64,000 bases of DNA, from positions 364 through 64,363 of the forward strand of contig CAYHAE010000001.1 of NCBI GenBank assembly GCA_964354545.1. Reading direction: 5' to 3'. This DNA comes from an uncultured Planctomycetia bacterium. GTDB taxonomy: Bacteria; Omnitrophota; Gorgyraeia; 2-01-FULL-45-10; JAHFGN01. Shown here in pieces: positions 20,525 to 35,129 of this stretch. The position numbers and the translations under genes are program-made. Position 1 is the first letter of the stretch. The number at the start of each line of letters is the position of its first letter. A model generated the notes under the pieces. The model saw only the letters and a program-made list of their open reading frames with translations, had not been told where the DNA came from and ran no database searches.

Positions 20525-20554
20525 TTGACAAATGCATGTATCTTGAGGTATACT
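20525..20554 (+). promoter_or_regulatory. Sigma-70-type promoter of the GGDEF gene. Layout: TTGACA, 18-nt spacer, TATACT.
   Basis: It sits about 40 nt upstream of the RBS (GGGAGGAG) and the ATG at 20595. It shares the block TTGACAAATG...GGTATACTT with the pilin promoter at 28519. Confidence 0.45.
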
Positions 20555-20594
20555 TAATATGTTTACAGCGGATAACGAGTACGGGAGGAGATGG

Positions 20595-22010
20595 ATGAAG
20601 GCCATTTTTAAGAGACGCTCGACCACCCCCGACGGTTTTGGATATAAATTATTGCTCGCGTTCGGCCTTATGTCGGTGATACCCCTCCTGGTCGCCGTCT
20701 ACCTTGCTATCAACTACGTATTTCCCCAATTGAACACTCTTGTCGATATAAGCGTGGTGCTCAGTCTCTCCGCCCTCATTGCGTTTCTCGGATTTATCTT
20801 TGCACGGAAGGTCATCAAGCCGGTAGTCGATATGGCGGTCATGGCGCGGACGATCGCGAGCGGTCACTACGAAAAACAGATCCACATTTCCGGCAACGAC
20901 GAGATCGCGCAATTGGGTGAATCGATAAATGCGATCACGGCGAAGGTGCGGCTCAACATCGAGGAGATGAAGAGCTACAGCCACAAGGCGCAGGAGCTCA
21001 ACGTGGAGATACACAGGAGGATGGTGGTCCTCGCGGGCCTCCTCCAGGTGAGTGACGTGATATTGAGCAGCACCATGGAATTCAAGGATATCCTCGACCT
21101 GCTTGTCTCGAAGGTCTCCCAGGCGTACGATACGGGGTTCGCGGTATTATTTCTATCGAAGGACTCGCCCGAGCTCTTCTATCCTGTCGCACTCTGCAAT
21201 GCGGAGCACGAAGGGTTCGACAAGATCGTCATACGCGAGGGGAAGGGTTTTCTGGGGAAGCTGCTCTTCTCGAGGTCTATCTTAGTGATCGACTCCACTA
21301 TGCGGGAGACGAAGGAGATTGAGGAGTTCAAGAGGGCGCACCATGTGAAAAACCTCGTTGTATTTCCGATATTCTCCGGGAAGGATACGTTCGGGATACT
21401 CTTCGCCGGCAACCGGCTCGATAATTACAAGTTCTCCTCCGATGAATTCGATATCGTGAAGATCTTCGCGAAGCAGATCGCGATCGCCGTTGAGAATAAT
21501 ATCCTCGTGAGAAAGACGAAGGAGCTCGCCCTGAAAGACGACCTCACGAACCTCTTCAACAGGAATTACATATTCCCGAGGCTCGATGAGGAGATCAAGA
21601 GGGCGCTCTTCTTTCAAAGGCCGTGCTCATTCTTAATGATCAACGTGGACGAGTACAGGAAGTTCAGGGATGACTGTGGAGAGATAGCCTCCGAGGAAGC
21701 GCTCAAGAAGATCGCCGACATCCTGAAGGGCTATGTCGAACCGTTCGGGAAAGCGGCAAGGATCGCGGGTGACGAATTTGCGCTCCTCCTGCCGGAAAAG
21801 AATAAGCGGCAGTCGCTGGAGATCGCCGAAGCGATACGGAGGAAGATCGAATCGTCGAGCTTCGCCGAATCTCAAACCAAGCCCTTGACCGTGAGCATAG
21901 GCGTGAGCGAAAACCCGATAGACGGGTCGACGCAGGAAGATATCGCAAAGAGCGCTGCGGCGTTTCTTGCGCACGCAAAAGCGCAGGGCAAGAACAGGGT
22001 CGTTGGTTGA
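20595..22010 (+). CDS. Membrane sensor diguanylate cyclase with HAMP, GAF and GGDEF domains. The active-site motif is AGDEF.
   Basis: Two TM segments, a HAMP domain, a GAF domain and a GGDEF domain (RIAGDEFALLLPE). I chose the MKAIF start with its strong RBS. Confidence 0.85.
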   Translation: MKAIFKRRSTTPDGFGYKLLLAFGLMSVIPLLVAVYLAINYVFPQLNTLVDISVVLSLSALIAFLGFIFARKVIKPVVDMAVMARTIASGHYEKQIHISGNDEIAQLGESINAITAKVRLNIEEMKSYSHKAQELNVEIHRRMVVLAGLLQVSDVILSSTMEFKDILDLLVSKVSQAYDTGFAVLFLSKDSPELFYPVALCNAEHEGFDKIVIREGKGFLGKLLFSRSILVIDSTMRETKEIEEFKRAHHVKNLVVFPIFSGKDTFGILFAGNRLDNYKFSSDEFDIVKIFAKQIAIAVENNILVRKTKELALKDDLTNLFNRNYIFPRLDEEIKRALFFQRPCSFLMINVDEYRKFRDDCGEIASEEALKKIADILKGYVEPFGKAARIAGDEFALLLPEKNKRQSLEIAEAIRRKIESSSFAESQTKPLTVSIGVSENPIDGSTQEDIAKSAAAFLAHAKAQGKNRVVG

Positions 22011-22088: not shown

Positions 22089-23153
22089 ATGGCCCACGAC
22101 ATTCAGCGTCTTTTACTGCTCATGAATGAGAGAAATGCGTCTGACCTGCACATCTCCGCGAACGCGACCGTGCAGCTGAGGCTCGACGAGAAGCTCGTTC
22201 CCGTTGATGACCATGTCCTCACTCCGGAAGAGGCGAAAACCCTCACGTACAGCATACTGAATAAGGAGCAGATCGCGAAGTTCGAGAAAGACCTGGAGCT
22301 TGACCTCTCCTTGAGCGTGACGGACTTGAGCAGGTTCAGGGTAAACGTCTTTAAACAGCGGGGAGACGTAGGGTGCGCGATCAGGCTCATACCGTTCAGG
22401 ATAAGGAACTTCGAGGAATGCGGCCTGCCCGTGGACGTCGTGACGAGCCTGTGCAAGAAACCGAAGGGGCTGGTCCTGGTCACCGGCGCGACAGGAAGCG
22501 GTAAATCGACGACGCTCTCCGCGATGATAGATTGGATAAATTCAGAGCGGTACTGTCACATCATCACCATCGAGGACCCGATAGAGTTCGTCCATACCCA
22601 CAAGAAGGCGCTCATTGAGCAGCGTGAGGTCTATAGCGATACGCACTCATTCGGGGAGTCCCTCAAGCACGTCCTGAGGCAGGATCCTGACGTCATCCTC
22701 ATCGGTGAGATGCGCGATCTGGAGACGATAGAGTCGGCCCTCATCATCGCAGAGACCGGCCACCTCGTATTTGCGACACTCCACACATCTGATTGCGTCC
22801 AGACGATGAATAGGATCATAGACGTCTTCCCGGCGTACCAGCAGCAGCAGATCCGGACGCAGCTCTCCTTCGTCCTCGTAGGGATCCTGTCCCAACAGCT
22901 CATCCCGCGGCTCAAAGGGACGGGCAGGGTCCTCGCGACCGAGGTCTTGGTGGTGACACCTGCGGTGCGCAGCCTCGTCCGCGAGGCAAAGATACACCAG
23001 CTCTACTCCGTCATCCAGACGTCGCAGAAAGACGGCATGAAGACAATGAACCAGGCGCTCTTCGAGCTCTATCAGAAGAAGCTCATATCGTACGAAGATG
23101 CGTTCGCGCGCTCGACCGATACCGAAGATCTGAACAGGGTCTTCAATCGGTGA
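22089..23153 (+). CDS. pilT: Type IV pilus retraction ATPase PilT.
   Basis: Walker A GATGSGKSTT, an Asp box and a His box. The 354-aa length is PilT-like and lacks the long N-terminal domain of PilB. Confidence 0.9.
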   Translation: MAHDIQRLLLLMNERNASDLHISANATVQLRLDEKLVPVDDHVLTPEEAKTLTYSILNKEQIAKFEKDLELDLSLSVTDLSRFRVNVFKQRGDVGCAIRLIPFRIRNFEECGLPVDVVTSLCKKPKGLVLVTGATGSGKSTTLSAMIDWINSERYCHIITIEDPIEFVHTHKKALIEQREVYSDTHSFGESLKHVLRQDPDVILIGEMRDLETIESALIIAETGHLVFATLHTSDCVQTMNRIIDVFPAYQQQQIRTQLSFVLVGILSQQLIPRLKGTGRVLATEVLVVTPAVRSLVREAKIHQLYSVIQTSQKDGMKTMNQALFELYQKKLISYEDAFARSTDTEDLNRVFNR

Positions 23154-23181: not shown

Positions 23182-23640
23182 ATGGCAGCGATTCGAAGGA
23201 TTGTTTCAAAACAATTAGGCGAGCTCCTCCTCGAGAGGAGGCTGATCGATCAATCCCAGCTCGAGTCGGCCCTCAAGCTGCAGAAAGAGAAGGGTGGGCT
23301 CATCGGTCAGATACTCGTCATGCTCGGGTACGTGAAAGAGGAGGATATTGCCCAGGCCATCACCGTCCAGTATGGTTTTCCCTTTCTCTCCCTGGAGAAT
23401 TACGAGATCAACCAGGAAGCACTACAGCTTATACCCGCGAGCGTGGCCCTCCAATACAACATCATACCCGTGGACAAGATAGGGAATATGCTTACGGTCG
23501 CGATGTCGAATCCGCTCAACCTGCAGGCGGTCGAGGACGTGGAGATGATCACCAAATGCCAGGTGCAGGTGTTCGTGAGCACCCTGACCGCCGTCACCGA
23601 AGCAATAAAGAAATATTATGGAGTTATCCCTAAGAGATAG
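23182..23640 (+). CDS. Standalone GspE-N (T2SSE_N / MshEN-like) domain protein.
   Basis: Only 152 aa. The N-terminus QLGELLLERRLIDQSQLESALKLQ matches the MshEN-type LGxxLLxx(x)LIxxxxLxxALxxQ helix pair. The rest matches the GspE-N fold (IPVDKIGNMLTVAMSNPLN). There is no ATPase domain. Confidence 0.7.
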   Translation: MAAIRRIVSKQLGELLLERRLIDQSQLESALKLQKEKGGLIGQILVMLGYVKEEDIAQAITVQYGFPFLSLENYEINQEALQLIPASVALQYNIIPVDKIGNMLTVAMSNPLNLQAVEDVEMITKCQVQVFVSTLTAVTEAIKKYYGVIPKR

Positions 23641-25354
23641 GCTTACCAAGATACTGATAGACGCGAAGCTCATCACCTACGAAGACCTCCTCAAGGCCAT
23701 CACGGTTCAAAAAGATCGCGGGGGAACGCTGGGCGAAACGCTTGTCAATCTCGGGCACATCTCTAAAGACCAGCTCATGCTCGCCATAAGCCAGGGCCTC
23801 GGGATACCCCCGATAAACCTCTCCCGCTATAAGGTAGATCCGAATATCCTAAGGCTGATACCGCCGAAGATCGCCAAGCACTACCAGATCATACCGCTCT
23901 CCAAGATAGGGAACACCCTCACGGTCGTCATGTCTGACCCGCTCAATATATTCGCGATCGACGGCATAAAGGCATTCACGGGCCTGAAGATATCCCCCCT
24001 CATCACTACCGAGCAGGACATAAAGGACGCCATCGCGCAATACTATGAGGAGGATGCGTCTTTGGTCATGGATAAGATCGTCGACGACCTGGGAGGGGGC
24101 GGCGAGATCACGGTGGTCGAAGAGAAGGGCGCTGCCGAAGGAGAGACGTCCACGGAATTGCTCAAGATGACGCAGGATGCGCCCGTAGTGAAATTTACAA
24201 ACGCCATACTCGCGGAAGGCGTTGACGTAAAGGCGAGCGACATCCTTGTGGAGCCTCTCGAGGACCAGATGAGGGTACGGTACAGGGTCGACGGCATTCT
24301 GCATGAAGGAAAGCACGCCCCAAAGGTGATGCACAAAGGCATTGTGTCGAGGCTCAAGGTAATGTCTGAGCTCAACATCGCCGAGCGCAGGCTGCCGCAA
24401 GACGGGCGGTTCAAGATACGCCTCCACAATCGGGAGATCGATTTCAGGATCTCCGTGCTCCCTTCGAAAGAAGGGGAGAAGGTGGCGCTCCGGATACTGG
24501 ATAAAGCGCAGGCGAAGCTCAACATAGAGGACCTCGGTTTTGATGAACATTCGGTCACGGAGATGAAGAAGGCCGCCGCCAAACCCCACGGCATGATACT
24601 CGTCGCCGGCCCGACAGGGTGCGGAAAGACGACGACCCTCTACTCTATCTTAAAGCATGTCGATTCACCCACGCTCAACCTCGTGACAGTGGAGGACCCT
24701 GTCGAGTACCTGTTGGATGGCATCAACCAGGTCACCGCGCGGCCCGACCTCGGTCTGACGTTCGCATCTGCGCTGAGGTCTATCTTGCGGCAGGACCCCG
24801 ACGTCGTGATGATAGGCGAGATAAGGGATTTTGAGACGGTCGATATCGCGATCAAGTCTGCGCTCACAGGGCATCTCGTGTTGAGCACGCTCCATACGAC
24901 GACCGCGCCCGGTTCGGTGATCCGCCTTGTGGATATGGGGGTCGAACCCTTTCTCCTCACGTCCTCCCTCATCCTGGTCGTGGCGCAGCGGTTGGTGAGG
25001 AAAATCTGTATGGTGTGCAAAGAACCGGTGAAATTAGACGACGCGATCGCGGAAAAGCTCAGGCTTGACGCGAATGAGGTGAAGGGCACGTTGTACCGGG
25101 GGAGGGGCTGCGACACGTGTTTAAAGACGGGCTATAAAGGCCGCGTGGGCATTGTGGAGGTGCTGTCCCTTACGCCAAAGGTAAAAGAGCTCATCCTCAA
25201 GGGTGTCCAGGAGTATGAGATACGGGATGAGGCGAGGAAAGAAGGGATGCTGAGCCTGCGCGAGAACGGGATAAAGAAGGTGTTAGAAGGGGCCACGACG
25301 CTTGACGAGGTCTTCCGTGTCACCGTGGGGAACCAGGATCTGGAGCTGAAATAA
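23618..25354 (+). CDS. pilB: Type IV pilus assembly ATPase PilB (GspE family), paralog 1.
   Basis: Tandem GspE-N domains at the N-terminus, Walker A GPTGCGKTTT and the tetracysteine motif CMVCK...CDTC. Confidence 0.9.
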   Translation: MELSLRDRLTKILIDAKLITYEDLLKAITVQKDRGGTLGETLVNLGHISKDQLMLAISQGLGIPPINLSRYKVDPNILRLIPPKIAKHYQIIPLSKIGNTLTVVMSDPLNIFAIDGIKAFTGLKISPLITTEQDIKDAIAQYYEEDASLVMDKIVDDLGGGGEITVVEEKGAAEGETSTELLKMTQDAPVVKFTNAILAEGVDVKASDILVEPLEDQMRVRYRVDGILHEGKHAPKVMHKGIVSRLKVMSELNIAERRLPQDGRFKIRLHNREIDFRISVLPSKEGEKVALRILDKAQAKLNIEDLGFDEHSVTEMKKAAAKPHGMILVAGPTGCGKTTTLYSILKHVDSPTLNLVTVEDPVEYLLDGINQVTARPDLGLTFASALRSILRQDPDVVMIGEIRDFETVDIAIKSALTGHLVLSTLHTTTAPGSVIRLVDMGVEPFLLTSSLILVVAQRLVRKICMVCKEPVKLDDAIAEKLRLDANEVKGTLYRGRGCDTCLKTGYKGRVGIVEVLSLTPKVKELILKGVQEYEIRDEARKEGMLSLRENGIKKVLEGATTLDEVFRVTVGNQDLELK

Positions 25355-27063
25355 TGGAGGCCCTCAAGGATAGGATCCTCAGGGTGCTCATCGATACGCA
25401 ACGCGTGAAGCCGAGCGAGCTCAAGAGGGTCCTCGAAAAGCAGAAGGACAGCCGGACGAGCATGAGCAAGGTCCTGGTCCAGGAGGGTCTCATCTCAGAG
25501 AAGGACCTCATGCTGATCTTGAGCCAGGAACTGAACATCCCTCCCATAAGCCTTTCGAAATATAAGATCGACCAGGCCACCGTACGCCTCATTCCGGAAA
25601 AGATCGCCCGTCAGTTCTTTCTCATTCCGCTTTCGAAGATCGGAAAGGTGCTCACCGTTGCAATGTCCGACCCGCTCAACATCATCGCCATCGACGAGGT
25701 GAAGCTGCTCACGAACTATAAGATAGACCTCGTCATCGCAACAGAGAACGACATCAAAGAGGCGCTCGATGCCTACTATGGTACCGCGACCCTCGAGACA
25801 CAGGAGGCGCTGGATACGCGCGCTGTCGGCGAGGAGCTCGAGATCGTTGAGGGAGAGGAGTTCGATGTCGACAGCATCTCCCAAGAGAGCCAGAAGGCTC
25901 CCATCGTGAAGATGGTGGACGTGATCTTGAACGATGCGCTGAGGAGGCGTTCGAGCGACATACACATTGAGTCGTGCGAGAAGATGCTGCGGATACGGTA
26001 CAGGATCGACGGAGACCTTCAGGAGGTCTTTAAACTCCCGAAGAAGAACCAGAATGCCATCATCGCACGATTTAAGATCATGTCCAAGCTCGACATCACG
26101 GAGACGCGTCTCCCGCAGGACGGGAGGTTCAGGATAAACTTCGAAGGGAAGGAGATAGACTTCAGGGTCTCGGTGCTTCCCATTGCGTTCGGGCCGAAGA
26201 TCGTCTTGAGGGCGCTCGATAAATCGAACTTGAGCGTGGGGCTCGACAAGCTCGGCTTCCTTCCGTATTCCCTCAATGTCTTCAAGGAGGCGCTCAAGCG
26301 TCCGTACGGCATGATACTCGTCACAGGGCCGACGGGGAGCGGGAAGTCGACCACCCTGTATTCCATCATCAATCAACTCAACACGCCCGAGAGGAATATC
26401 GTGACGCTCGAGGAGCCTGTGGAGTACGAGTTGCAGGGCATCACGCAGGTCGAGGTGAGGTCGGATATCGGCCTCACCTTTGCGAACGGGCTCCGGTCCA
26501 TCTTGCGGCAGAGCCCCGATGTGATCATGGTCGGAGAGATCAGGGATTTCGAGACGGCGGATATCGCGATAAAGGCCTCGCTCACAGGGCAGCTCATCCT
26601 GAGCACGCTCCACACGAACGACTCGGTCGGAGCTATTACGAGGCTCGTCGATATGAAGGTGGAACCATTTCTGTTATCATCGAGCCTCATCATGGCATGC
26701 GCCCAGAGGCTCCTCAGGAGGACCTGCCCCCATTGCAGGGCCGAGGTGGACGTGCCCAAAGGTGTCTTGGAGGAATTCGGCATCGATCCGCTTGACGAGC
26801 ACAAGAAGAAGAGGGTCTTCTATGAGGGGAAAGGGTGCGAGAAGTGCAACAGCTCCGGTTACTATGGAAGGTCCGGGATACTTGAGGCGTTCCTCATCGA
26901 TGACACGATGCGCGATATGATCATCAGGAGGGCATCGAGCGACGAACTGAAGGCGCATGCCATGAAAAAAGGGATGAGGACGCTGAGGCAAGAAGCGCTG
27001 GAAAATTTCGTCAACGGTGTCACGACCCTGGAAGAGGTCTTGAGGGTGACCGCGGAGGGGTAA
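25354..27063 (+). CDS. Second GspE-family assembly ATPase (PilB paralog 2).
   Basis: Same architecture as paralog 1: Walker A GPTGSGKSTT and CPHCR...CEKC. Its start overlaps the paralog-1 stop in a TAATG arrangement. Confidence 0.85.
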   Translation: MEALKDRILRVLIDTQRVKPSELKRVLEKQKDSRTSMSKVLVQEGLISEKDLMLILSQELNIPPISLSKYKIDQATVRLIPEKIARQFFLIPLSKIGKVLTVAMSDPLNIIAIDEVKLLTNYKIDLVIATENDIKEALDAYYGTATLETQEALDTRAVGEELEIVEGEEFDVDSISQESQKAPIVKMVDVILNDALRRRSSDIHIESCEKMLRIRYRIDGDLQEVFKLPKKNQNAIIARFKIMSKLDITETRLPQDGRFRINFEGKEIDFRVSVLPIAFGPKIVLRALDKSNLSVGLDKLGFLPYSLNVFKEALKRPYGMILVTGPTGSGKSTTLYSIINQLNTPERNIVTLEEPVEYELQGITQVEVRSDIGLTFANGLRSILRQSPDVIMVGEIRDFETADIAIKASLTGQLILSTLHTNDSVGAITRLVDMKVEPFLLSSSLIMACAQRLLRRTCPHCRAEVDVPKGVLEEFGIDPLDEHKKKRVFYEGKGCEKCNSSGYYGRSGILEAFLIDDTMRDMIIRRASSDELKAHAMKKGMRTLRQEALENFVNGVTTLEEVLRVTAEG

Positions 27064-27119
27064 AGGAGCAAGAGGGGACCGTGAGTCCCTTGAGCGCGAC
27101 ACGGAGCGGAGGACGTGCC

Positions 27120-28334
27120 ATGCCACACTTTCGATATACCGCAAAAGACAGCAAGGGGAATTCGCTCAAAGGCGTGTTAGAGGCCGCCACGAGGCAGGAA
27201 GCGGTGGCCGCCCTCCATAAGCAGGGCGTGTTGATCATATCGCTCGGCGAGGTGAAGGCAAAGCAGGCGGGGCGTTCGGCCGGCCACTTTGCAAAGAAGG
27301 TGAAGATGGACGAGCTTGTCATCTTCTCCCGGCAGCTCGCGACGATGGTCGATGCGGGGATACCTCTCGTAGGCGCTCTCGACATCCTTGGGCAGCAGAT
27401 AGAGACAAAGTCGTTCAAAAACGTGGTGCAGGGGATCCGCGAACGGGTGGAGGCAGGGGAGAGCCTTTCTGACGCCATGTCAAAACACAGGACGATCTTC
27501 TCAGAGCTTTTCGTCAATATGGTGAAGGCGGGGGAGGCGAGCGGCATGCTCGATGAGATACTCGAAAAGGTCGCAGAATATCTTGAAAAGACGAGTGCGC
27601 TGCAGAGGAAAGTTCAGTCCGCACTCATCTATCCGGCGGTAGTGACCTCGATGGCGATCGGCATTACGCTCGTCCTTCTGATCAAGGTGATCCCGGTCTT
27701 CAAAGATATATACTCAGGCTTTGGGGCAGCGCTTCCCAGGCCGACGCAAATCCTCATCTTCGTGAGCGATGCCCTCGGAAAGTATTTCCTCGTGACTACG
27801 ATTGTCCTCGTGCTCGTCTTCATTGCCCTCGGTCGATATCTCCGTACGGAGCGCGGCAGATTTATGTTCGATAGTTTCCTTCTCAGCGTTCCCGTATTCG
27901 GGGTCCTGTTCAAAAAGGTAGCAGTGAGCAAATTCACAAGGACGCTTTCTACGCTCGTGAAGAGCGGCGTCCCCATACTCACCTCACTTGAGATAGTGAG
28001 CAGGACATCGGGCAATAAGGCGGTAGAAGCGGCATTAGAAGTGGTCCGCAAGAATGTGCGCGAAGGCGAGAGGATCGCGGACCCTCTTGCGAAATCGAAG
28101 ATATTTCCTCCGATGGTGGTGAGGATGGTTGCTGTGGGTGAACAGGCCGGACAACTTGAGAAGATGCTCACCAAGATAGCAGATTTTTATGAAACCCAGG
28201 TGGACGCTGCGGTAAGCGGCCTCACGAGCCTTATCGAACCCCTCATTATTCTATTTCTTGGCATCGTCATAGGAACCATTGTCATCTGTATGTTCCTGCC
28301 CATATTCAGGCTCACCTCTGTATTGGGTGGGTAA
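27120..28334 (+). CDS. pilC: Type IV pilus platform protein PilC (GspF family).
   Basis: Two T2SSF repeats separated by TM segments. I chose the MPHFRY start. The track ORF begins 13 codons upstream. Confidence 0.9.
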   Translation: MPHFRYTAKDSKGNSLKGVLEAATRQEAVAALHKQGVLIISLGEVKAKQAGRSAGHFAKKVKMDELVIFSRQLATMVDAGIPLVGALDILGQQIETKSFKNVVQGIRERVEAGESLSDAMSKHRTIFSELFVNMVKAGEASGMLDEILEKVAEYLEKTSALQRKVQSALIYPAVVTSMAIGITLVLLIKVIPVFKDIYSGFGAALPRPTQILIFVSDALGKYFLVTTIVLVLVFIALGRYLRTERGRFMFDSFLLSVPVFGVLFKKVAVSKFTRTLSTLVKSGVPILTSLEIVSRTSGNKAVEAALEVVRKNVREGERIADPLAKSKIFPPMVVRMVAVGEQAGQLEKMLTKIADFYETQVDAAVSGLTSLIEPLIILFLGIVIGTIVICMFLPIFRLTSVLGG

Positions 28335-28546: not shown

Positions 28547-28648
28547 TTATAATGGAACCCAGTATCTGTTAAAGAGAGGGGGTGGAAAGGGGATAATTTA
28601 AAGACTTTTTTTATCGGACCCATTTTTGGGAAAAAGGAGGGATGAGAC

Positions 28649-28984
28649 ATGGTCAGAAGACATAAAAAGGGATTCACGCTTGTTGAAATCATGATAGTCG
28701 TCGCAATTATAGGTCTATTGGCTGCCATCGCTATCCCGAACTTTGTGAGGGCGAGAGAGACGGCAGAAAGAAATGCGTGTATCGCAAACCTGAAGCAGAT
28801 ACAGGGTGCAGTTCAGGTGTGGGCGATCGACACGAGTGCGGGGTCCACTTCAACGCCAACCGCGACATCAGATCTCGCGAACTACATAAAGACATGGCCG
28901 AAGTGCAAAACAACTACGTATGCGATACCCGCAGTCAGTGCAAACCCCGCGTGTCCAACCACCGGCACTGGACACAACCTCTAA
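28649..28984 (+). CDS. Type IV pilin (prepilin N-terminal cleavage/methylation domain), copy 1.
   Basis: Class III signal MVRRHKKG|FTLVEIMIVVAIIGLLAAIAIP with a Cys pair in the C-terminal region. An RBS (AGGAGG) precedes it. Confidence 0.85.
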   Translation: MVRRHKKGFTLVEIMIVVAIIGLLAAIAIPNFVRARETAERNACIANLKQIQGAVQVWAIDTSAGSTSTPTATSDLANYIKTWPKCKTTTYAIPAVSANPACPTTGTGHNL

Positions 28985-29019
28985 TCTTAAGGGGTAATCC
29001 ATTTTTCGTGCGAGGTGCG

Positions 29020-29057
29020 AAAAGGACGGCTATCGTATTATTGCCGTCCTTTTTGCT
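29020..29057 (+). terminator. Rho-independent terminator after pilin copy 1.
   Basis: AAGGACGGC-loop-GCCGTCCTT followed by TTTTT. Confidence 0.6.
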
Positions 29058-29180
29058 TTGGGTATTTCGAAAATTATTTAATTATTATCAGAGCACAACA
29101 GCTGTAAATGAAAGGGGGTGAGGACCGGCCTAAAGACTTTTTTTATCGGACCCATTTTTGGGAAAAAGGAGGGATGAGAC

Positions 29181-29516
29181 ATGGTCAGAAGACATAAAAA
29201 GGGATTCACGCTTGTTGAAATCATGATAGTCGTCGCAATTATAGGTCTATTGGCTGCCATCGCTATCCCGAACTTTGTGAGGGCGAGAGAGACGGCAGAA
29301 AGAAATGCGTGTATCGCAAACCTGAAGCAGATACAGGGTGCAGTTCAGGTGTGGGCGATCGACACGAGTGCGGGGTCCACTTCAACGCCAACCGCGACAT
29401 CAGATCTCGCGAACTACATAAAGTCATGGCCGAAGTGCAAAACAACGACGTATGCGATACCCGCAGTCAGTGCAAACCCCACGTGTCCAACCACCGGCAC
29501 TGGACACAACCTTTAA
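29181..29516 (+). CDS. Type IV pilin, copy 2.
   Basis: The protein differs from copy 1 at 2 of 111 residues (T to S and A to T). The upstream leader and RBS are also duplicated. Confidence 0.85.
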   Translation: MVRRHKKGFTLVEIMIVVAIIGLLAAIAIPNFVRARETAERNACIANLKQIQGAVQVWAIDTSAGSTSTPTATSDLANYIKSWPKCKTTTYAIPAVSANPTCPTTGTGHNL

Positions 29517-29518
29517 TC

Positions 29519-29715
29519 CTGTTATCAGAGTTCCACGAGCTACGCCCGTGGGTTGCACCCGCGGACGTAGACCGCGGGTGCATGGCGGAGCGGTCCGGGA
29601 TTTAATTCCCGAAATCTTTCAGATTTCAGGGGAGCGGTTGCCGCACAAGGAGAGTATTCAGTGCGGGTACCGCGGGCTGCGTGCCAACGGCAGGCGTACC
29701 CGTGGGGCTCCAGGC
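29519..29715. mobile_element. Structured insert of about 197 bp (element B) in the 3' UTR of pilin copy 2. It carries the same 27-nt core as element A.
   Basis: Copy 1 reads TAATC|TTAAGGGG. Copy 2 reads TAATC[197 bp]TTAAGGGG. The insert is hairpin-dense (TGCACCCGCGG/CCGCGGGTGCA, CCACG/CGTGG, GCCGCAC/GTGCGG) and has the core at 29608-29634. Confidence 0.5.
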
Positions 29716-29749
29716 TTAAGGGGTAATCCATTTTTCGTGCGAGGTGCGG

Positions 29750-29790
29750 AAAGGACGGCTATCATATTATTGCCGCCCTTTTCTTTTTAG
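29750..29790 (+). terminator. Terminator after pilin copy 2 (slightly degraded duplicate of the copy-1 terminator).
   Basis: AAAGGACGGC-loop-GCCGCCCTTTTCTTTTT. Confidence 0.5.
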
Positions 29791-29905
29791 GACAGCGCGA
29801 TAAACGTTTTTCATAATGCAATCGTGATATCGGGGCCACGTATCTGTTGAAGAGTAAGGCGCTTTTTGACTTCACCCGATCCTAGGAGGGAAGGGGGGAT
29901 GAGAC

Positions 29906-30241
29906 ATGGTCAGAAGACATAAAAAGGGATTCACGCTTGTTGAAGTCATGATAGTCGTTGCAATCATAGGTCTATTGGCTGCCATCGCCATCCCCAACTT
30001 TGTAAGGGCGAGAGAGACGGCAGAAAAGAGCGCGTGTATATCAAACCTGAAGCAGATACAGGGTGCGGTCGAAATGTGGGTACTCGATACGAGCGCGGCA
30101 TCTTCGTCAACGGCGTCTGGAACATCAGACCTTGTGAATTACATAAAGGTATGGCCAAAGTGTAAGGCGAGCACATATGCGATACCTGCGGCAGACGGAA
30201 CGCCCGTGTGTCCGAACAGCATAGGCGGACACAACCTCTAA
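29906..30241 (+). CDS. Type IV pilin, divergent third paralog.
   Basis: Same N-terminal domain as copies 1 and 2. The variable C-terminal half is divergent but the Cys pair is conserved. Confidence 0.85.
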   Translation: MVRRHKKGFTLVEVMIVVAIIGLLAAIAIPNFVRARETAEKSACISNLKQIQGAVEMWVLDTSAASSSTASGTSDLVNYIKVWPKCKASTYAIPAADGTPVCPNSIGGHNL

Positions 30242-30275
30242 ACCTACAGCGGGGATCCTTTTCACTTTGGGTACC

Positions 30276-30313
30276 TTGACAATCTCCGATATTTATGATA
30301 GATTTGATATAAT
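30276..30313 (+). promoter_or_regulatory. Promoter candidates downstream of pilin 3. Layout: TTGACA, 17-nt spacer, TAGATT, then an extended -10 TGATATAAT.
   Basis: Consensus-like hexamers at 30276-30281 and 30299-30313 in an AT-rich patch. Confidence 0.45.
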
Positions 30314-30424
30314 ATTATAATATTAGGTATGTACCCTTTATGAGATGGTTTGACTAATTGGAGGAAGATGCGGTTTAGAAGGCAAGGTATCATTTTGACC
30401 GGATGCCTGTTTATAACGGTATGT

Positions 30425-30463
30425 AAAGCACCCTTCTCATTTGTGCGCGGGGTGCTTTTTTCA
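30425..30463 (+). terminator. Intrinsic terminator between that promoter and pilM.
   Basis: AAGCACCC-loop-GGGTGCTT followed by TTTTTC. Confidence 0.55.
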
Positions 30464-30555
30464 TGTCTCGTCCGGCGCGTATGTATGAGCCCTGCGCCTC
30501 ATTTCGATACTTTTAACCCAGAAGACCTGCCTTACGCTCTACCGAGAGGGATAAT

Positions 30556-31563
30556 ATGCCGAAAGCAAGGGTAGAGAAAAAACTGGGTATCGATATCGGA
30601 AGCTACGCCATAAAGTTGGTCGAACTTCACTTGTCCAAGGATGAGAACAGGGTCGCCAGCATTGGAATTAAAAGGATCGAGAACAGCTCCCCGGAAGCCC
30701 TAGCAGGAAAGGTGAGGGAGCTCTGCGAGGAATCAAAAGTGAAGACGAGGGACGTGAGCCTGTCTGTCTCCGGCCCGCAGGTTATCACGCGGCTCATTAC
30801 AATGCCGACAATGTCCGACTCGGAAATGAAGAATGCGCTCGTGTTCGAAGTCGAGAAGACCATCCCCTTTAGTCCCGAAGAGGTTATCTACGATTACCAG
30901 GTGCTCGAGCGAGGGAAAGAGAAGAAGATGGACGTCCTGCTCACGGCGGTCAAGAGAGATTACGTGCAAAAGTACATCCAGATCGCCCAGTCGAGCGACC
31001 TGAGCCTTCGCGTCGTGGACGTGGACTCCCTTGCGCTCGCAAATGCGTTCGTGAAAAACTCCGAAGGCTCCCTCGACCAGAATAAGACGGTCGCGCTTCT
31101 CAATATCGGCGACAGATATACGAACCTCGACATATTGCGCGGAGGGGTCTTGAGCTTCTCCAGGGATATACAGATAGGAGGGCGCGATGTCAATGAGTCC
31201 ATTGCGCGGATACTGAACGTCGACAGCAAGGGCGCGGAAAAGCTGAAGTTCGACCCCAAGGAGCGCGCGGACGAAATAGGCCTTCCCATTAGAATGGTGT
31301 TGGCCAATCTGGCTGACGAGCTGAGGCTGTCATTTGGGTATTTCGAGAATAGATTCGGGAGGAACGTCGATGACCTGTATCTCTCCGGAGGGTCATGCGG
31401 CCTGCTCGGCGTGACCGAATACCTCGAGGAGAACCTTGGGCTCAAGGCGAAGGTGTGGGACCCCCTCAAGGCGTTTAGCATAGATCAGGAAAACGTAGGA
31501 AAAGCACTCTCGAACGAGATGAGGCGCAGCCTCGCGGTGAGCGTGGGGCTTGCCCTGAGATAA
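30556..31563 (+). CDS. pilM: Type IV pilus assembly protein PilM (actin-like).
   Basis: The N-terminus LGIDIGSYAIKLVEL has the actin/HSP70 fold. It is followed by pilN, pilO, pilP and pilQ. Confidence 0.85.
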   Translation: MPKARVEKKLGIDIGSYAIKLVELHLSKDENRVASIGIKRIENSSPEALAGKVRELCEESKVKTRDVSLSVSGPQVITRLITMPTMSDSEMKNALVFEVEKTIPFSPEEVIYDYQVLERGKEKKMDVLLTAVKRDYVQKYIQIAQSSDLSLRVVDVDSLALANAFVKNSEGSLDQNKTVALLNIGDRYTNLDILRGGVLSFSRDIQIGGRDVNESIARILNVDSKGAEKLKFDPKERADEIGLPIRMVLANLADELRLSFGYFENRFGRNVDDLYLSGGSCGLLGVTEYLEENLGLKAKVWDPLKAFSIDQENVGKALSNEMRRSLAVSVGLALR

Positions 31564-31566
31564 CGT

Positions 31567-32289
31567 ATGAACCTAGAGATCAACCTTCTACCGAAAGAGT
31601 TAAGGCCGCGCAAGAAGATACAGCTCCCGCCGATTGCGTTAAAGATCTTCGGCATCTCCAACGTCCGGCCGATCGTCTTGGTGGCGTGGCTCATCGCGAT
31701 CCTTTTTACGCTGCAGATGCTGTTCTCTGCGCTTCAGGTGGTCCAGAGGTCACGCCTCGGCGCCTTGCAGAACAGGTTCTCGAAGCTCAGCCGCGAGAAG
31801 GGCGAGGTGGACGCGATAAAAAAGCAGATCGCGAGCATCACCCAAAAGGTCGCCTCTGTCGGCGAAGGGATACAAAGGCCCTTCAGCCTCGCCGAGAAGC
31901 TCAACGCGATAAGCGATGCCGTCGTGTCGGGGATGTGGCTGACGCAGCTCGCATACGACGAGAAGACTGCCGAGGTGGAGGTTGCGCCGAGCACAGCGGG
32001 CGGGGCAGGCATGAAAAGAGCGCCCGGCGCCAAGGCGGCGCCCGCTAAGCCAACCATAAAACGAGTGACCACGCGGACACTCTCTCTTTCAGGCTATGTC
32101 TACAGCGCGGGCGAGGACTCGACCGCATACCTCAATAGATTTATCGACAACCTGAAAAAGAACGAGGGCTTTTATTTTGATTTCAACAATATAGCGGTGG
32201 TGGAGAACAGGGTCGAGTTTCTCCAATTGGAGAAAGGGGAAGGGCAGGAAGTCACCGCGTTCAGTATCGTCTGCCAGTTCAGGCAATAA
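31567..32289 (+). CDS. pilN: PilN-like bitopic pilus assembly protein.
   Basis: N-terminal INLLPKE motif, a single TM segment and a coiled coil. At 240 aa it is longer than usual. Confidence 0.75.
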   Translation: MNLEINLLPKELRPRKKIQLPPIALKIFGISNVRPIVLVAWLIAILFTLQMLFSALQVVQRSRLGALQNRFSKLSREKGEVDAIKKQIASITQKVASVGEGIQRPFSLAEKLNAISDAVVSGMWLTQLAYDEKTAEVEVAPSTAGGAGMKRAPGAKAAPAKPTIKRVTTRTLSLSGYVYSAGEDSTAYLNRFIDNLKKNEGFYFDFNNIAVVENRVEFLQLEKGEGQEVTAFSIVCQFRQ

Positions 32290-32334
32290 CAGGGCAGGCG
32301 CTGTCCGTCATACGAAAGGCGCAGTCCCGCCCTT

Positions 32335-33012
32335 TTGGGATGCAGGGTTAATACATTATCCAAAAGGGTGGGACGTCCTGCAAGAGGCTATAGAGCAAAG
32401 GACAGCACATCGGTGAACATACCGTTTCTTGAAGAACTTCTGAAAGATAACGAAAAGAGGGCGATCCTCGTGCTCGCGGTCCTCGCTGCGGTGCTCATCG
32501 CGTATCTTTTGTTCGTAGCGGTACCCCAATTGAGAGACCTGATACTCGTGTCGAGCGAGTTCGTCACGCTGGAAAAGGAGATGCGCTCCACCGAACAAGA
32601 GATACAGAAGACGGCATATTACCAGAAGACGTTGAATGAATTGAAAGAAAAGTTTTCTCAATATCAGACGTACCTTTTGGGGCACGAGGGAGAAATACCG
32701 GTTCTCATGGAGAAGGTCTCTCGCATGGCGCGGGAATCGGGAGTGAAGATATTGGGTATCAAACCCGTGAACGTACAGGAAGGGCCTGCGGAGGCGAGGG
32801 GAGCGCTTTGCAGGGAGATCTCGATACTTACGGTCGCGCGGTCGGGATATCATGAGCTCGGCACATTCGTGAACCACATTGAGAGCGCGGATATTTTTTT
32901 GAGGGTTGCGGACCTCAGGTTAAGGTTCAATAAGACTTCCCCTAAGAAACACGACGTGAGCCTCTCGATCGTTTCCTATTTGTTCATGGGGGGAAAGGGT
33001 GGTCTTGAGTAA
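32335..33012 (+). CDS. pilO: PilO-like pilus assembly protein.
   Basis: TM segment followed by a coiled coil and the periplasmic PilO fold, in the conserved position. The start is uncertain. An in-frame GTG near 32412 with an upstream AAGGA is possible. Confidence 0.65.
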   Translation: MGCRVNTLSKRVGRPARGYRAKDSTSVNIPFLEELLKDNEKRAILVLAVLAAVLIAYLLFVAVPQLRDLILVSSEFVTLEKEMRSTEQEIQKTAYYQKTLNELKEKFSQYQTYLLGHEGEIPVLMEKVSRMARESGVKILGIKPVNVQEGPAEARGALCREISILTVARSGYHELGTFVNHIESADIFLRVADLRLRFNKTSPKKHDVSLSIVSYLFMGGKGGLE

Positions 33013-33370
33013 GATCATTGCCGCAGGGTGCGTAGTCCTTCTCGTGGTATGTGTTGCGTATGGAGATGCGCGTGGAGAGGGTACCTTTGCGTACAATTCG
33101 AAGGGGAAGAGAGATCCGTTCATGCCCTTGTTAGGGCATGAACGTCAGGCGGGATCTCCGGAAGACATATCCACGATCGACGATGTGAAGTTGGAAGGCA
33201 TAGCGGTACAGTCGGAAGGTAAGCGGATCGCGATCATAAACGGTATCGTCGCGAAAGAGGGAGACAAGATCGGCGCCCTGCAGGTGAATAAGATTTCGCC
33301 GAAGAAAGTACAGGTCGTCATAGACGGACGTGACTATGAATTGGCCCTGGCAGAGAAAGAGGCTAGGTAG
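32999..33370 (+). CDS. pilP: PilP-like lipoprotein-type pilus assembly protein.
   Basis: RDPFMP motif and a C-terminal beta domain (GIAVQSEGKRIAIINGIVAKEGDKIG). Confidence 0.7.
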   Translation: MVLSKIIAAGCVVLLVVCVAYGDARGEGTFAYNSKGKRDPFMPLLGHERQAGSPEDISTIDDVKLEGIAVQSEGKRIAIINGIVAKEGDKIGALQVNKISPKKVQVVIDGRDYELALAEKEAR

Positions 33371-33383
33371 GAGGTGGAATGCG

Positions 33384-35129
33384 GTGAATAGAAAAAATTT
33401 CGTCAAGTACATCGTGGCAATCTGTCTTGTATGTTCGATGTCGAGCCTATCGGCACAGGAGGCGGCCGTTAAAGAGCAGAGGAAGGCCGAACCTCCGGGT
33501 CAGCCGGTCGAGGGCTCGAAGCTAGGCGTTGCGCCGTCTCAGCCTGGCGGCCCGGCGAGCGCAGCGGGTACAGCGGGCACGGCGAGCACGACAGCCATCC
33601 AGGACACGGGTCAGGCGGGCGAAGCGGGCGAGGAACCGAAAGAGGAGGTAGCCCCGCTTGAACCCGGGAATATCACGGTAAATTTCAAAGGTGCCGACAT
33701 GAGGACGGTATTGAACTATATCGCAGAGGTCGCGGGGATCGATATAGTTCCGGCTCCTGACGTGAAGGGGCCCGTGGACGTACGACTCACCAATAAGCCC
33801 TGGAAGGTAGCGCTCGATATAATCCTGAGGAATTACGGATACGCGTACGAAGAGACCAGCGGCATCATACGCGTTGACACCATCTCTCGGTTGAGAGAGC
33901 AGGAGCCCATCACCCAGACCTATAGCCTCGATTACGCAAGCGCAAAAACGATCGCGGGCGGAATGAAAGACGACAAGAACCTCCCCATCCCGGGCGCGAT
34001 AAAGGACATCCTGAGCGAGAAGGGGAAGATCGCTTTTGACGATAGGACGAACATACTGGTGGTGACCGACGTCCCCTCGAAGATCGATAAGATAAATCAG
34101 GTCATTAAAGACCTCGACGCCGAGACGCCGCAGGTGTTGATCGAGGCCAAGGTCATCGAGACGCAGCTCGAGAAGAACGAGACGATGGGGATCGATTGGA
34201 CCATAAGCGCAACCGTGGCGGGAGCCCAAAGGCCGACGACGATACCTTTCTTAAGCTGGCAAAATCCGCTCGCGCCGCTTGGCGTGAAATTTGACGAGAA
34301 GACGTGGCTGCCTCAGGGAGGTCCCGCCGCCAACTCTGCGAGCACGACACTCCTCTTTCCATCGGGCCCCAGAGACGGCTCTTTTGGATTTCCCTACGCG
34401 TTGCCGGCGGACTTTACGTATGGGACGCTCGACTTTACCTCATTCCAGGCCGTGTTGCAGATGCTGAAGAACAGGACCCGGACAGAGGTCATCTCTGATC
34501 CAAGGGTGGCGACTCTCAACAATAAGCCGGCGTACATAAACGTCGGTGAGACGTTCAACTTTCCGCTGTATGAGCGGAATATGGCGACAGGCAGGATGGA
34601 GATCATCGGATATAGAGCGGAAGACCACGGCATAAAATTGAACGTCACGCCGCACATCAATACGAAAAACGAGATCTGGGTCGAGCTGGCGCCCGAGATA
34701 AGCGAGTTCAAGCGATACGATACGCTCGATGCGGCAAGCGGGATCAAGGCGCCCGTCTTCTCAAAGAGAAAGGCGACGACCCAGGTGCTGGTCAGGGACG
34801 GCGATACGATATTCATCGGAGGCATCATCAAGGAGAACAACACATTCTTTAAGAGCAAGATGCCTATCCTCGGGGACCTCTTCGGAGACATTCCCTACAT
34901 AGGCGGTCTCTTTTCGCAAAAGGCTGACGTCGTGACAAAGGTGGAGCTCATCTTCTTCATAACAGTTCGCGTGTTGGCGCATGACAAAACGCTCAAGGGG
35001 GTGCCGGACAACGCGAGAGCGTATTCGCCTACCTTTTCACTCTATGAGAACTATCACGATCAGGATAGACAAAAGGATAAGAATAATAATAATAAGAATA
35101 ACAATAAGAAGAAGAAAAGGCAAAAATAG
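33384..35129 (+). CDS. pilQ: Type IV pilus secretin PilQ.
   Basis: Signal peptide, N0/secretin-N domains (ILVVTDVPSKIDKINQVIKDLD) and a C-terminal secretin domain (VLVRDGDTIFIGGII...PILGDLFGDIPYIGGLF). I chose a GTG start with AGGAGGTGG upstream. The protein ends in a K/N-rich tail. Confidence 0.85.
   Translation: MNRKNFVKYIVAICLVCSMSSLSAQEAAVKEQRKAEPPGQPVEGSKLGVAPSQPGGPASAAGTAGTASTTAIQDTGQAGEAGEEPKEEVAPLEPGNITVNFKGADMRTVLNYIAEVAGIDIVPAPDVKGPVDVRLTNKPWKVALDIILRNYGYAYEETSGIIRVDTISRLREQEPITQTYSLDYASAKTIAGGMKDDKNLPIPGAIKDILSEKGKIAFDDRTNILVVTDVPSKIDKINQVIKDLDAETPQVLIEAKVIETQLEKNETMGIDWTISATVAGAQRPTTIPFLSWQNPLAPLGVKFDEKTWLPQGGPAANSASTTLLFPSGPRDGSFGFPYALPADFTYGTLDFTSFQAVLQMLKNRTRTEVISDPRVATLNNKPAYINVGETFNFPLYERNMATGRMEIIGYRAEDHGIKLNVTPHINTKNEIWVELAPEISEFKRYDTLDAASGIKAPVFSKRKATTQVLVRDGDTIFIGGIIKENNTFFKSKMPILGDLFGDIPYIGGLFSQKADVVTKVELIFFITVRVLAHDKTLKGVPDNARAYSPTFSLYENYHDQDRQKDKNNNNKNNNKKKKRQK

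Follow-up and report, generated by a model that had tools for sequence, protein, structure and literature searches.

The 64,000-nucleotide stretch of DNA analysed here (the window) contains, on its forward strand, a type IVa pilus operon in which pilT on one side and a tandem pair of pilB genes on the other flank a small open reading frame, mshEN (23182..23640). A promoter-like site with 11/12 matches, found by a consensus scan only, lies at 20525..20554 ahead of a gene encoding a HAMP-GAF-GGDEF membrane protein (20559..22010; Pfam HAMP, GAF and GGDEF) and may mark the start of the operon. Signature analysis showed that this membrane protein carries an AGDEF signature and no RxxD I-site; it could be a local source of c-di-GMP or a scaffold. 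Next on the same strand are the genes for the retraction ATPase PilT (354 aa, 22089..23153; TIGR01420, 469 bits), the mshEN product, the assembly ATPase PilB1 (578 aa, 23618..25354; T2SSE, 445 bits), which has an MshEN domain of its own (82 bits), its paralogue PilB2 (569 aa, 25354..27063; T2SSE, 445 bits; about 50% identical to PilB1) and the platform protein PilC (27081..28334; T2SSF, 215 bits). Downstream of the GGDEF gene, the successive gaps are 78, 28, -23, -1 and 17 nt, with mshEN starting 28 nt past the pilT stop and overlapping the pilB1 start by 23 nt at its end. The rest of the cluster (28649..35129, forward strand) encodes three pilins, PilM, a likely PilN, PilO, a T2SSB-like protein and the secretin PilQ (Pfam N_methyl, PilM_2, PilO and Secretin).

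The mshEN ORF starts with ATG and encodes a 152-aa, 17-kDa protein (PF05157, NF053729), which a profile search showed to be a complete MshEN/GSPII domain with both subdomains and no further domain. The NCBIfam model NF053729 'c-di-GMP_motif' matched residues 11-63 with 60.1 bits (cut-off 38), delimiting an MshEN_N subdomain (23212..23370, forward strand) with the predicted c-di-GMP site, whereas Pfam MshEN (PF05157) matched residues 64-147 with 76.3 bits (cut-off 23.1), corresponding to a T2SSE_N1-type MshEN_C subdomain (23371..23622, forward strand), presumed to be the protein-docking part. Both scores exceed their cut-offs and a chance match is therefore excluded. The initial annotation had described the ORF as the N-terminal domain of GspE-type ATPases without the ATPase core, and this description holds: Pfam returned MshEN only, with no match to the T2SSE ATPase (PF00437), PilZ or a GGDEF-EAL receptor, the protein stops at residue 152, and TIGR02538 aligned over profile positions 2-137 of 564 only, with 83.9 bits against a cut-off of 675. 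The structure prediction proposed at that time also bears out the MshEN assignment. The AF2 model (pLDDT 87.2) comprises helices at residues 3-18, 24-37, 41-47 and 53-64, forming the four-helix MshEN_N bundle, followed by a C-terminal subdomain of three beta-strands and flanking helices. In Foldseek comparisons, the best fold match was GSPII-A of Thermus thermophilus PilF (9g1w; TM 0.85), followed by the N-terminal domain of Vibrio cholerae MshE with c-di-GMP (5HTL; TM 0.69-0.75), which has the same two-subdomain fold, and c-di-GMP-bound PilF GSPII-B (8pdk and mutants; TM about 0.62-0.68), while MshEN_C weakly resembled the EpsE/GspE N1 domain as seen in GspL complexes (2bh1, 4pht). The suggestion that such proteins are rarely annotated stands as regards their names, the source databases listing them as 'hypothetical protein' or 'PilB', but not as regards their number, since free-standing MshEN proteins are abundant (40 of the best 150 cluster representatives are of ≤200 aa). 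The JGI name 'PilB' for family members is a misnomer, as the 152-aa protein has no ATPase core, and both database names need correcting.

MshEN domains bind c-di-GMP through two 24-residue copies of the motif (R/K/L)LGxx(LVI)(LVI)xxG(LVIF)(LVI)xxxxLxxxLxxQ joined by 5 residues. In the 152-aa protein, motif I is QLGELLLERRLIDQSQLESALKLQ (residues 11-34), the very peptide whose resemblance to the MshEN motif had been pointed out beforehand; it is separated by a spacer of canonical length, KEKGG (35-39), from motif II, LIGQILVMLGYVKEEDIAQAITVQ (40-63). Motif II was absent from the initial description. The protein matches 20/22 key motif positions and shares with MshE and the c-di-GMP-binding PilB proteins of Myxococcus, Clostridium and Chloracidobacterium the tandem motifs, the 5-residue spacer, the essential Gly, Gln and hydrophobic triads, and the pilus context. 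Unlike these proteins, in which the domain is fused to an ATPase and motif position 1 is Arg in both copies, the window protein ends after the domain and has Gln and Leu at these positions. Across 82 orthologues, position 3 is Gly in 98% (motif I) and 100% (motif II), and position 24 is Gln in 96% and 100%, respectively. At position 1, motif II has Leu in 100% of the stand-alone family, as does PilF GSPII-B, a 6 nM binder, whereas the Gln of motif I, found in 92% of the family, falls outside the tested R/K/L set. The window copy further has Ile in place of Leu in motif II and Arg at motif I position 10 (R20), where 81% of the family has Gly and only about 1% of orthologues share the Arg; its affinity for c-di-GMP may therefore be lower. 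Mutational data are available for several of these positions. In MshE, G11I/L and G40I abolish c-di-GMP binding (PMC5013675). In PilF GSPII-A constructs, Gly to Ala causes a 10-fold loss and Ser at motif II position 1 abolishes binding, whereas Leu to Ile is tolerated (PMC12002112), and PilF GSPII-B has nanomolar affinity with Leu or Lys at motif position 1 (PMC11731258). PilF GSPII-A shows that motif conservation is by itself insufficient to predict c-di-GMP binding.

The initial annotation had also raised the possibility of a gene-fission remnant or of a pseudogenised pilB. In that case the ORF would be a relic, namely the 5' end of a former third pilB or a functionless by-product of the fission. 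Its domain content does equal the first 150 residues of a PilB, and transcribed pilB stubs are known, such as the 60-aa fragment of the Paenibacillus thiaminolyticus reference strain (PMC9765702). Against this, not one of the 82 orthologues is disrupted and their length is fixed (145-158 aa), their pairwise dN/dS is about 0.09 (median 0.089; 0.01-0.09 for close pairs), and the stand-alone protein is as conserved as the ATPase cores, with a mean evolutionary distance of 0.41 compared to 0.39-0.42 for the PilB cores, 0.67 for the PilB1 N-terminus and 0.82 for the PilB2 N-terminus. The MshEN_C subdomain has a mean column conservation of 0.76-0.86 across the same 82 orthologues. Moreover, there is no ATPase-like sequence 3' of the ORF, pilB1 beginning within its last 23 nt, and pilB1 carries a full MshEN domain. 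The relic interpretation is thus refuted by the comparative data. Two variants of it were also discarded. The ORF is not the split-off head of pilB1, since the latter has a complete MshEN domain, and a programmed frameshift or read-through fusing mshEN to pilB1, considered because the two genes overlap in different frames, was ruled out by the variation of spacing and frame among orthologues (-82 to +740 nt, median 6; 0 nt in locus L001 and 55 nt in L002). The gene is under purifying selection and its synteny is fixed, and comparative sequence evidence indicates that mshEN is a functional part of the type IVa pilus operon of Omnitrophota, conserved throughout the phylum.

Relatives of the 152-aa protein are encoded in 334 species genomes. 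The best 80 loci, all from Omnitrophota MAGs, share the gene order rSAM, HAMP-GAF-GGDEF, pilT, mshEN, pilB1, pilB2 and pilC, in which pilT is optional and the median gaps flanking mshEN are 4-9 nt. Among the 79 loci with a recognised upstream gene, the gene directly preceding mshEN encodes the GGDEF protein in 46, at a median gap of 4 nt and with no pilT in between, and PilT in the other 33, where the GGDEF gene precedes the pilT-mshEN pair. In related loci, pilB2 is then followed by pilC; an apparent loss of pilB in three of them (L025, L060, L072) was traced to N-runs that interrupt the contigs. The same motif pattern recurs in a second family, 41-47% identical, which heads mshEN-pilB-pilB-pilC-pilS-pilR clusters; in its loci L084 and L086, neither GGDEF nor pilT adjoins mshEN, and the order mshEN-pilB-pilB-pilC is kept. 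With pilT missing from more than half of the loci and the second family devoid of both upstream genes, this leaves the pilB pair and pilC as the sole constant neighbours of mshEN. In most relatives without pilT, the GGDEF signature is degenerate (GDNEF, GDDEF, DDDEF), and a local cyclase cannot be the general rule. There are also proteins in which a T2SSE ATPase carries 2-4 fused MshEN domains (P0121, P0127, P0135).

The three MshEN domains of the operon were compared at individual residues for which mutational data have been published. PilB1 of the window has RLT in motif I and a motif II Gln out of register; among 66 PilB1 orthologues, motif I position 3 is Thr in 71% and Gly in 0%, while motif II has Ser at position 3 in 96% and lacks the final Gln. 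PilB2 of the window has degenerate motifs (RIL, SMS) and scores 27.4 bits against NF053729, under the cut-off of 38; in 59 PilB2 orthologues, motif I position 3 is Ile, Val, Leu or Thr and never Gly, and motif II position 3 is Arg in 49% and Gly in 40%. By this comparison, the stand-alone domain is the only one of the three that keeps the Gly and Gln known from experiment to be essential. NF053729 itself did not discriminate binders from non-binders, matching at E ≤ 1e-9 in 81/81 stand-alone proteins, 65/66 PilB1 and 54/59 PilB2; since it recognises the three groups almost equally, the proposed division of labour rests on a few key residues only.

Together, these data suggest that the stand-alone MshEN protein most likely senses c-di-GMP on behalf of the PilB1/PilB2 extension motor, as a receptor acting in trans, a reading in which we place moderate confidence. 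The adaptor role put forward in the initial annotation thereby becomes the best-supported reading, and the comparative data strengthen it because in about 80 genomes mshEN has a fixed place next to the pilB pair and a GGDEF gene and because the essential Gly and Gln of the operon are kept in this domain only. It is rather unlikely that the protein is instead an accessory subunit independent of c-di-GMP, namely a structural or docking module that, for instance, completes an N-terminal GSPII ring with PilB1/PilB2 or forms a bridge to PilM. The first GSPII domain of PilF, which works without nucleotide binding, provides a model for such a subunit, and the Gln at motif I position 1 would agree with it; however, the near-invariance of Gly3 and Gln24 in both motifs and of the Leu/Ile triads is difficult to account for unless a ligand binds, given that the sister domains of PilB1 and PilB2 have lost these ligand-contacting residues yet kept the fold, and the linkage to the GGDEF gene is conserved. 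In addition, the N-cap that blocks the site in GSPII-A (Thr and Asp at -7 and -4 from the Gly) is absent, Arg6 and Ser9 being found instead.

As to the partner, PilB is likelier than PilT on the genomic evidence, because pilT is the immediate upstream neighbour in only 33/79 loci. That the protein is a c-di-GMP receptor directed mainly at a target other than PilB appears less probable still than a nucleotide-independent subunit. Such a receptor might act in a two-protein module with the HAMP-GAF-GGDEF protein or in control of retraction through PilT, and its output would differ, for example by switching retraction or by signalling to further processes. The tight coupling to the GGDEF gene in 46 loci and the position of pilT directly upstream in 33, the window included, are consistent with this, as are the many non-ATPase partners of MshEN domains (Wang 2016 Suppl. 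Table 4) and the direct contact of Escherichia coli DgcJ with the MshEN protein NfrB, a precedent for local c-di-GMP signalling (PMC8669469). Nevertheless, more than half of the loci lack pilT at that position, and the invariance of the two pilB genes and pilC, which persists in the second family, argues against it. The Omnitrophota genes resemble the NfrB/DgcJ pair in associating a GGDEF protein with an MshEN receptor; in NfrB, however, the domain is fused to a glycosyltransferase, and the often degenerate Omnitrophota signature indicates that the GGDEF partner, unlike DgcJ, may be a scaffold rather than a cyclase. A mirror-tree analysis did not single out PilB as co-evolving partner: the pairwise distances of the small protein correlated with those of each neighbour at 0.82-0.89, and the partial correlations, of 0.52-0.65 with the maximum at the PilB1 N-terminus, did not discriminate between neighbours.

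If the stand-alone protein is indeed the receptor of the extension motor, its N-terminal bundle would bind one c-di-GMP via the two tandem 24-residue motifs, and the loaded protein would dock, probably by its N1-type subdomain, on PilB1/PilB2 or on their docking site on PilM/PilC, thereby tuning pilus extension. Given the decay of these motifs in PilB1 and PilB2, it is proposed that sensing was handed to the small protein; the HAMP-GAF-GGDEF neighbour may supply c-di-GMP locally in lineages with an intact active site. What we infer is that the protein binds c-di-GMP, that PilB is its partner and that it has a regulatory effect, which may be either activating or inhibiting.

By analogy, the stand-alone protein together with PilB1 and PilB2 most likely represents a split version of multi-GSPII ATPases such as Thermus PilF, in which three GSPII domains (A, B and C), all of them matched with 169.7 bits in total, precede one ATPase. 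Both systems have more than one MshEN domain per motor. In PilF, the extra domains are fused to the ATPase in cis, and c-di-GMP is bound by two of the three, whereas in Omnitrophota the extra domain is a separate polypeptide and degeneracy affects the domains that PilB1 and PilB2 carry in cis. The PilZ-FimX adaptors of Xanthomonas and Pseudomonas PilB follow the same adaptor logic, a resemblance that is functional only, since their folds (PilZ; a GGDEF-EAL receptor) are unrelated to MshEN; the Omnitrophota adaptor would instead be a paralogue of the domain that it serves. Pseudomonas aeruginosa PA3740, here compared by its description only (MshEN followed by a divergent T2SSE_N1; Wang 2016 Suppl. 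Table 4), is likewise ATPase-less. [quoted passage not shown] It is the only ATPase-less protein of the MshEN plus T2SSE_N1 type found described in the accessible literature, in which searches brought up no other characterised free-standing MshEN adaptor; no link to a pilB operon is reported in the parts of that literature covered here, and Suppl. Table 4 of Wang 2016 includes no plain MshEN-only architecture.

The role of the N-terminal MshEN/N1 region of pilus assembly ATPases, and how c-di-GMP binding is relayed to the motor, is poorly understood (PMC11656802), partly because the domain is flexible and fused to the ATPase. A separate 17-kDa putative sensing domain beside two motors with probably ligand-blind copies would reduce this problem to three soluble proteins and one ligand, and would allow one to test whether c-di-GMP alters the docking of N1 domains. 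More tentatively, Omnitrophota may possess a naturally split pilus motor, in which a free c-di-GMP-sensing GSPII domain assembles in trans with PilB1 and PilB2 carrying ligand-blind docking GSPII domains, and in which c-di-GMP, made in some lineages by the adjacent HAMP-GAF-GGDEF protein, would decide whether, or which, PilB engages the platform. Such a motor, if true, would be the first in which a diffusible MshEN domain serves its own paralogues as an adaptor, and would provide a clean system for the role of the N1 domain of PilB. The mshEN gene is a hallmark of the Omnitrophota pilus operon. Omnitrophota are uncultured, ultra-small bacteria that probably depend on hosts; nearly all of them have type IVa pili, which are believed to mediate host attachment (PMC10066038); if this attachment is gated by c-di-GMP through the stand-alone MshEN protein, the finding would bear on the lifestyle of the phylum.

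The 152-codon mshEN ORF (23182..23640, + strand, ATG start) begins 28 nt past the pilT stop, and its final 23 nt overlap the start of pilB1 in another frame. The only Pfam domain in its product is MshEN (PF05157, 76.3 bits against a cut-off of 23.1 bits, residues 64-147), while the 53-residue NCBIfam model NF053729 'c-di-GMP_motif' matches residues 11-63 (60.1 bits, cut-off 38 bits), a stretch composed of motif I (residues 11-34), the canonical 5-residue spacer KEKGG and motif II (residues 40-63). The Pfam and NCBIfam profile search gave no T2SSE ATPase match, and alignment to the PilB equivalog TIGR02538 was confined to the first 137 profile positions; since it is without an ATPase core, the protein is not a PilB. 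The initial annotation, which described the ORF as consisting of the N-terminal domain of GspE-type ATPases only, is therefore confirmed far beyond chance by the above-cut-off profile matches and both canonical motifs, and the peptide it had likened to an MshEN motif corresponds to motif I, with motif II also present. The structural comparison it had proposed likewise returned an MshEN-type fold: the AlphaFold2 model (25 sequences; pLDDT 87.2, pTM 0.77) has a bundle of four helices with an alpha/beta subdomain C-terminal to it, and Foldseek searches against the PDB matched it to PilF GSPII-A (9g1w, TM 0.85), MshE with c-di-GMP (5htl, TM 0.69-0.75), PilF GSPII-B with c-di-GMP (TM ~0.62-0.68), the Xanthomonas PilB N-domain in its PilZ complex, and XpsE-N. 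Its C-terminal half also weakly resembles the EpsE/GspE N1 domain seen in GspL complexes. At the sequence level the protein matches each of the three PilF GSPII domains as well as PilB N-termini from Geobacter and Myxococcus, and its score against the adjacent PilB1 (95 bits) does not exceed that against Geobacter PilB (97 bits). Profile, fold and motif together place it firmly in the MshEN/GSPII family, and ligand binding is predicted for it.

The gene lies within a complete type IVa pilus cluster on the + strand, comprising a HAMP-GAF-GGDEF protein gene (20559..22010), pilT (22089..23153; TIGR01420, 469 bits), mshEN, a full-length pilB1 (23618..25354, 578 aa), pilB2 (25354..27063, 569 aa), pilC (27081..28334), three tandem pilin genes of 111 aa each (28649..30241) and, 3' of the pilins up to 35129, pilM, a likely pilN, pilO, a T2SSB-like gene and the secretin gene pilQ. 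Intergenic gaps from the GGDEF gene to pilC are 78, 28, -23, -1 and 17 nt, and a promoter-like site, by consensus match only (11/12), occurs immediately 5' of the GGDEF gene. Within 28599-30241, pilin copies 1 and 2 encode proteins 98% identical and agree at 100% over a 300-nt stretch that takes in 50 nt of upstream sequence, and each is followed by an 84-nt terminator-like repeat (28979-29062 and 29708-29791); the third copy is 77% identical. The translations of PilB1 and PilB2 both retain Walker A, Walker B, the His box and the tetracysteine, so both look like active ATPases. The two are ~50% identical, with degenerate c-di-GMP motifs in each; conservation of the pair in all related loci suggests a two-ATPase extension motor, possibly hetero-oligomeric.

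Searching 5.8 billion proteins with mshEN yielded 1690 matches, the best 120 of which are almost all 144-154 aa long with 67-78% identity, and are named 'hypothetical protein [Candidatus Omnitrophota]' (NCBI) or 'PilB' (JGI). With each GTDB species represented by a single genome, relatives were encoded in 334 genomes; the best 80 loci of that search all belong to Omnitrophota MAGs, of which a few bear an automatically assigned 'Planctomycetia' label. Several loci (L004, L010, L014, L026, L030 and others) are titled 'uncultured Planctomycetia' or 'Planctomycetales', with operon proteins 61-77% identical; these titles probably reflect automatic taxonomy labels and not true occurrence outside Omnitrophota. 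ORFs called in 83 related loci and classified against the window proteins revealed in every locus the order radical-SAM gene, HAMP-GAF-GGDEF, [pilT], mshEN, pilB1, pilB2, pilC and pilins, with median gaps of 4 nt (GGDEF-mshEN), 9 nt (pilT-mshEN) and 6 nt (both mshEN-pilB1 and pilB1-pilB2). Three apparent exceptions proved to be N-runs in contigs, not real gene loss. The radical-SAM gene (Radical_SAM_N2 + Radical_SAM; 18358-20124 in the window) is present in 74 related loci and lies directly upstream of the GGDEF gene in the window and 71 of them.

It had also been considered that the ORF might be a remnant of gene fission or the 5' fragment of a pseudogenised pilB. This is refuted: copies are intact in 82/82 cases (145-158 aa), the median Nei-Gojobori dN/dS is 0.089 (50 pairs whose dS is unsaturated; 0.01-0.09 in close pairs), and the mean evolutionary distance over 43 genomes (0.41) matches that of the PilB ATPase cores (0.39-0.42), leaving a remnant with a vanishingly small probability. 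[quoted passage not shown] Nor can mshEN be a detached head of pilB1, since both PilBs carry their own N-terminal MshEN domain.

MshEN_N binds one c-di-GMP. The 53-residue motif window was taken from the stand-alone protein (n=82), PilB1 (n=66) and PilB2 (n=59). At motif I position 3, Gly occupies 98% of stand-alone copies, whereas it is absent (0%) from PilB1 (Thr 71%) and PilB2 (Ile/Val/Leu/Thr); at motif II position 3, Gly (100%) is replaced by Ser in PilB1 (96%) and by Arg (49%) or retained (Gly 40%) in PilB2. Gln at motif I position 24 is common to all three (96%, 98% and 96%, respectively), whereas at motif II position 24 it is found in 100% of stand-alone copies, 1% of PilB1 (Gly or Glu instead) and 67% of PilB2. 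Motif II position 1 is Leu in every stand-alone copy (100%), Arg (37%), Ser (28%) or Lys (27%) in PilB1, and Ser (45%) or Pro (40%) in PilB2, and position 10 of motifs I/II is Gly (81%/100%) in the stand-alone protein, Lys (69%/45%) in PilB1, and Lys (62%)/Gly (79%) in PilB2. All triad positions of the stand-alone protein are occupied by Leu or Ile, whereas its motif I position 1 is mostly Gln (92%), a residue outside the R/K/L set covered by experiments. In MshE, G11I/L and G40I each abolish c-di-GMP binding, and the failure of XpsE to bind has been attributed to G11V, G40L, Q61V and similar changes (PMC5013675). In PilF GSPII-A constructs, replacing the motif II Gly with Ala caused a 10-fold loss and Ser at motif II position 1 abolished binding, whereas Leu to Ile cost only 2.4-fold (PMC12002112); PilF GSPII-B has a native Leu at motif II position 1, and Lys or Leu at motif I position 1 gave 2-6 nM affinity, better than Arg (PMC11731258). 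Because it keeps the key residues, which these published mutants show to matter, only the small protein among the operon's three MshEN domains is predicted to bind c-di-GMP canonically. The NF053729 HMM does not separate the groups (stand-alone 81/81, PilB1 65/66 and PilB2 54/59 at E <= 1e-9); of the window copies, PilB1 passes its cut-off (44.7 bits) and PilB2 fails (27.4 bits).

PilF GSPII-A shows that a conserved motif does not guarantee binding: its site is blocked by a capped extra helical turn and inter-subdomain contacts (PMC12002112); at the sequence level, the ideal N-cap is not found in mshEN, where Arg6 and Ser9 replace Thr and Asp. At residue 20 the window copy carries Arg, found in ~1% of orthologues, in place of the family's Gly; because MshE Gly18 forms the turn between helices 1 and 2, this copy may bind more weakly than its relatives. 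That the small protein is a ligand-independent accessory subunit is unlikely but deserves consideration. A conserved free MshEN domain is fixed beside two PilB ATPases, and the ligand-contacting residues are preserved only in this free copy.

The window HAMP-GAF-GGDEF protein has an AGDEF signature preceded by DDLTNLFNR, and no RxxD I-site was found in it; VCA0965 of Vibrio cholerae, an AGDEF cyclase, is reportedly active. A local cyclase feeding the mshEN receptor is plausible in the window genome, with a precedent in E. coli, where DgcJ is paired with the MshEN protein NfrB (PMC8669469). pilT separates the GGDEF gene from mshEN in 33 loci and does not occur at that position in 46. Relatives without pilT have GDNEF, GDDEF or DDDEF, which are very likely inactive, so a local cyclase cannot apply generally. 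In pilT-keeping relatives, GGDEF is the commonest single type (13/30), besides AGDEF, SGDEF, GADEF and non-canonical variants such as SGFEF and SGKEF. The degenerate gene still abuts mshEN (median gap 4 nt), and its product may be a scaffold or sensor in those lineages. A second free-standing family (175-181 aa, 41-47% identical to the window protein, one member named Candidatus Omnitrophica) heads mshEN-pilB-pilB-pilC-pilS-pilR-pilin clusters (L084 8001-16000; L086 5908-14450) with a canonical motif in the small protein and degenerate motifs in both PilBs; no GGDEF or pilT gene adjoins these clusters, so pilC and the pair of pilB genes are the invariant partners. It is accordingly quite improbable that the small protein is a receptor acting chiefly on the GGDEF protein or on PilT.

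Free-standing MshEN proteins are plentiful among known sequences: at E <= 1e-3 the search gave 22,949 cluster representatives, and of the top-scoring 150, 40 do not exceed 200 aa. Not all are pilus-linked, since a 209-aa MshEN-only protein of a Nitrospirota MAG (L085 8001-8630) is encoded outside any pilus cluster; its gene adjoins one for a small TPR protein, and 4.5 kb upstream lies a PilZ gene. Unusual architectures among the representatives (P0161/P0169) include a 454-aa fusion of MshEN with a DnaA-type ATPase domain and a 723-aa MshEN-PilZ-DUF7305 protein; the latter would combine c-di-GMP receptor domains of two kinds in one chain. It is common for ATPases to carry two to four MshEN domains in cis, as seen in PilF, in P0121 (four), P0127 (three) and P0135 (two), and in Wang 2016 Suppl. 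Table 4. By gene-fusion logic, such proteins predict that an extra MshEN domain and PilB cooperate physically.

In GspE/PilB, it is the N1-type subdomain that docks on platform proteins of the GspL/PilM type. We lean, with moderate confidence, towards the small protein being a c-di-GMP receptor acting on PilB1/PilB2 or their docking site, and the adaptor role suggested in the initial annotation appears the best-supported reading. The protein would bind c-di-GMP, then associate with either target and so tune pilus extension, by activation (as a licensing subunit) or inhibition (as a decoy for the PilM site). PilBs with a degenerate MshEN rely on the separate adaptors PilZ and FimX (PMC11656802), which are alike in logic to the proposed adaptor but unrelated as proteins. 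In the accessible literature, no characterised protein made up solely of a canonical MshEN domain was found, nor any proposed as a PilB cofactor; the closest one there is P. aeruginosa PA3740 (MshEN + diverged N1). The pilus-related passages of the Omnitrophota survey, which stress near-universal type IVa pili in the phylum, show no sign of the gene (PMC10066038). Neither the domain nor the ligand is new; the novelty lies in the split architecture, conserved across the phylum, with cis copies that motifs predict to be ligand-blind. Although the organisms are uncultured and the finding fits within what is already established for c-di-GMP, MshEN domains and pili, the system is open to direct testing with three soluble proteins, and the putative division of labour between free and cis MshEN domains would be notable to specialists.
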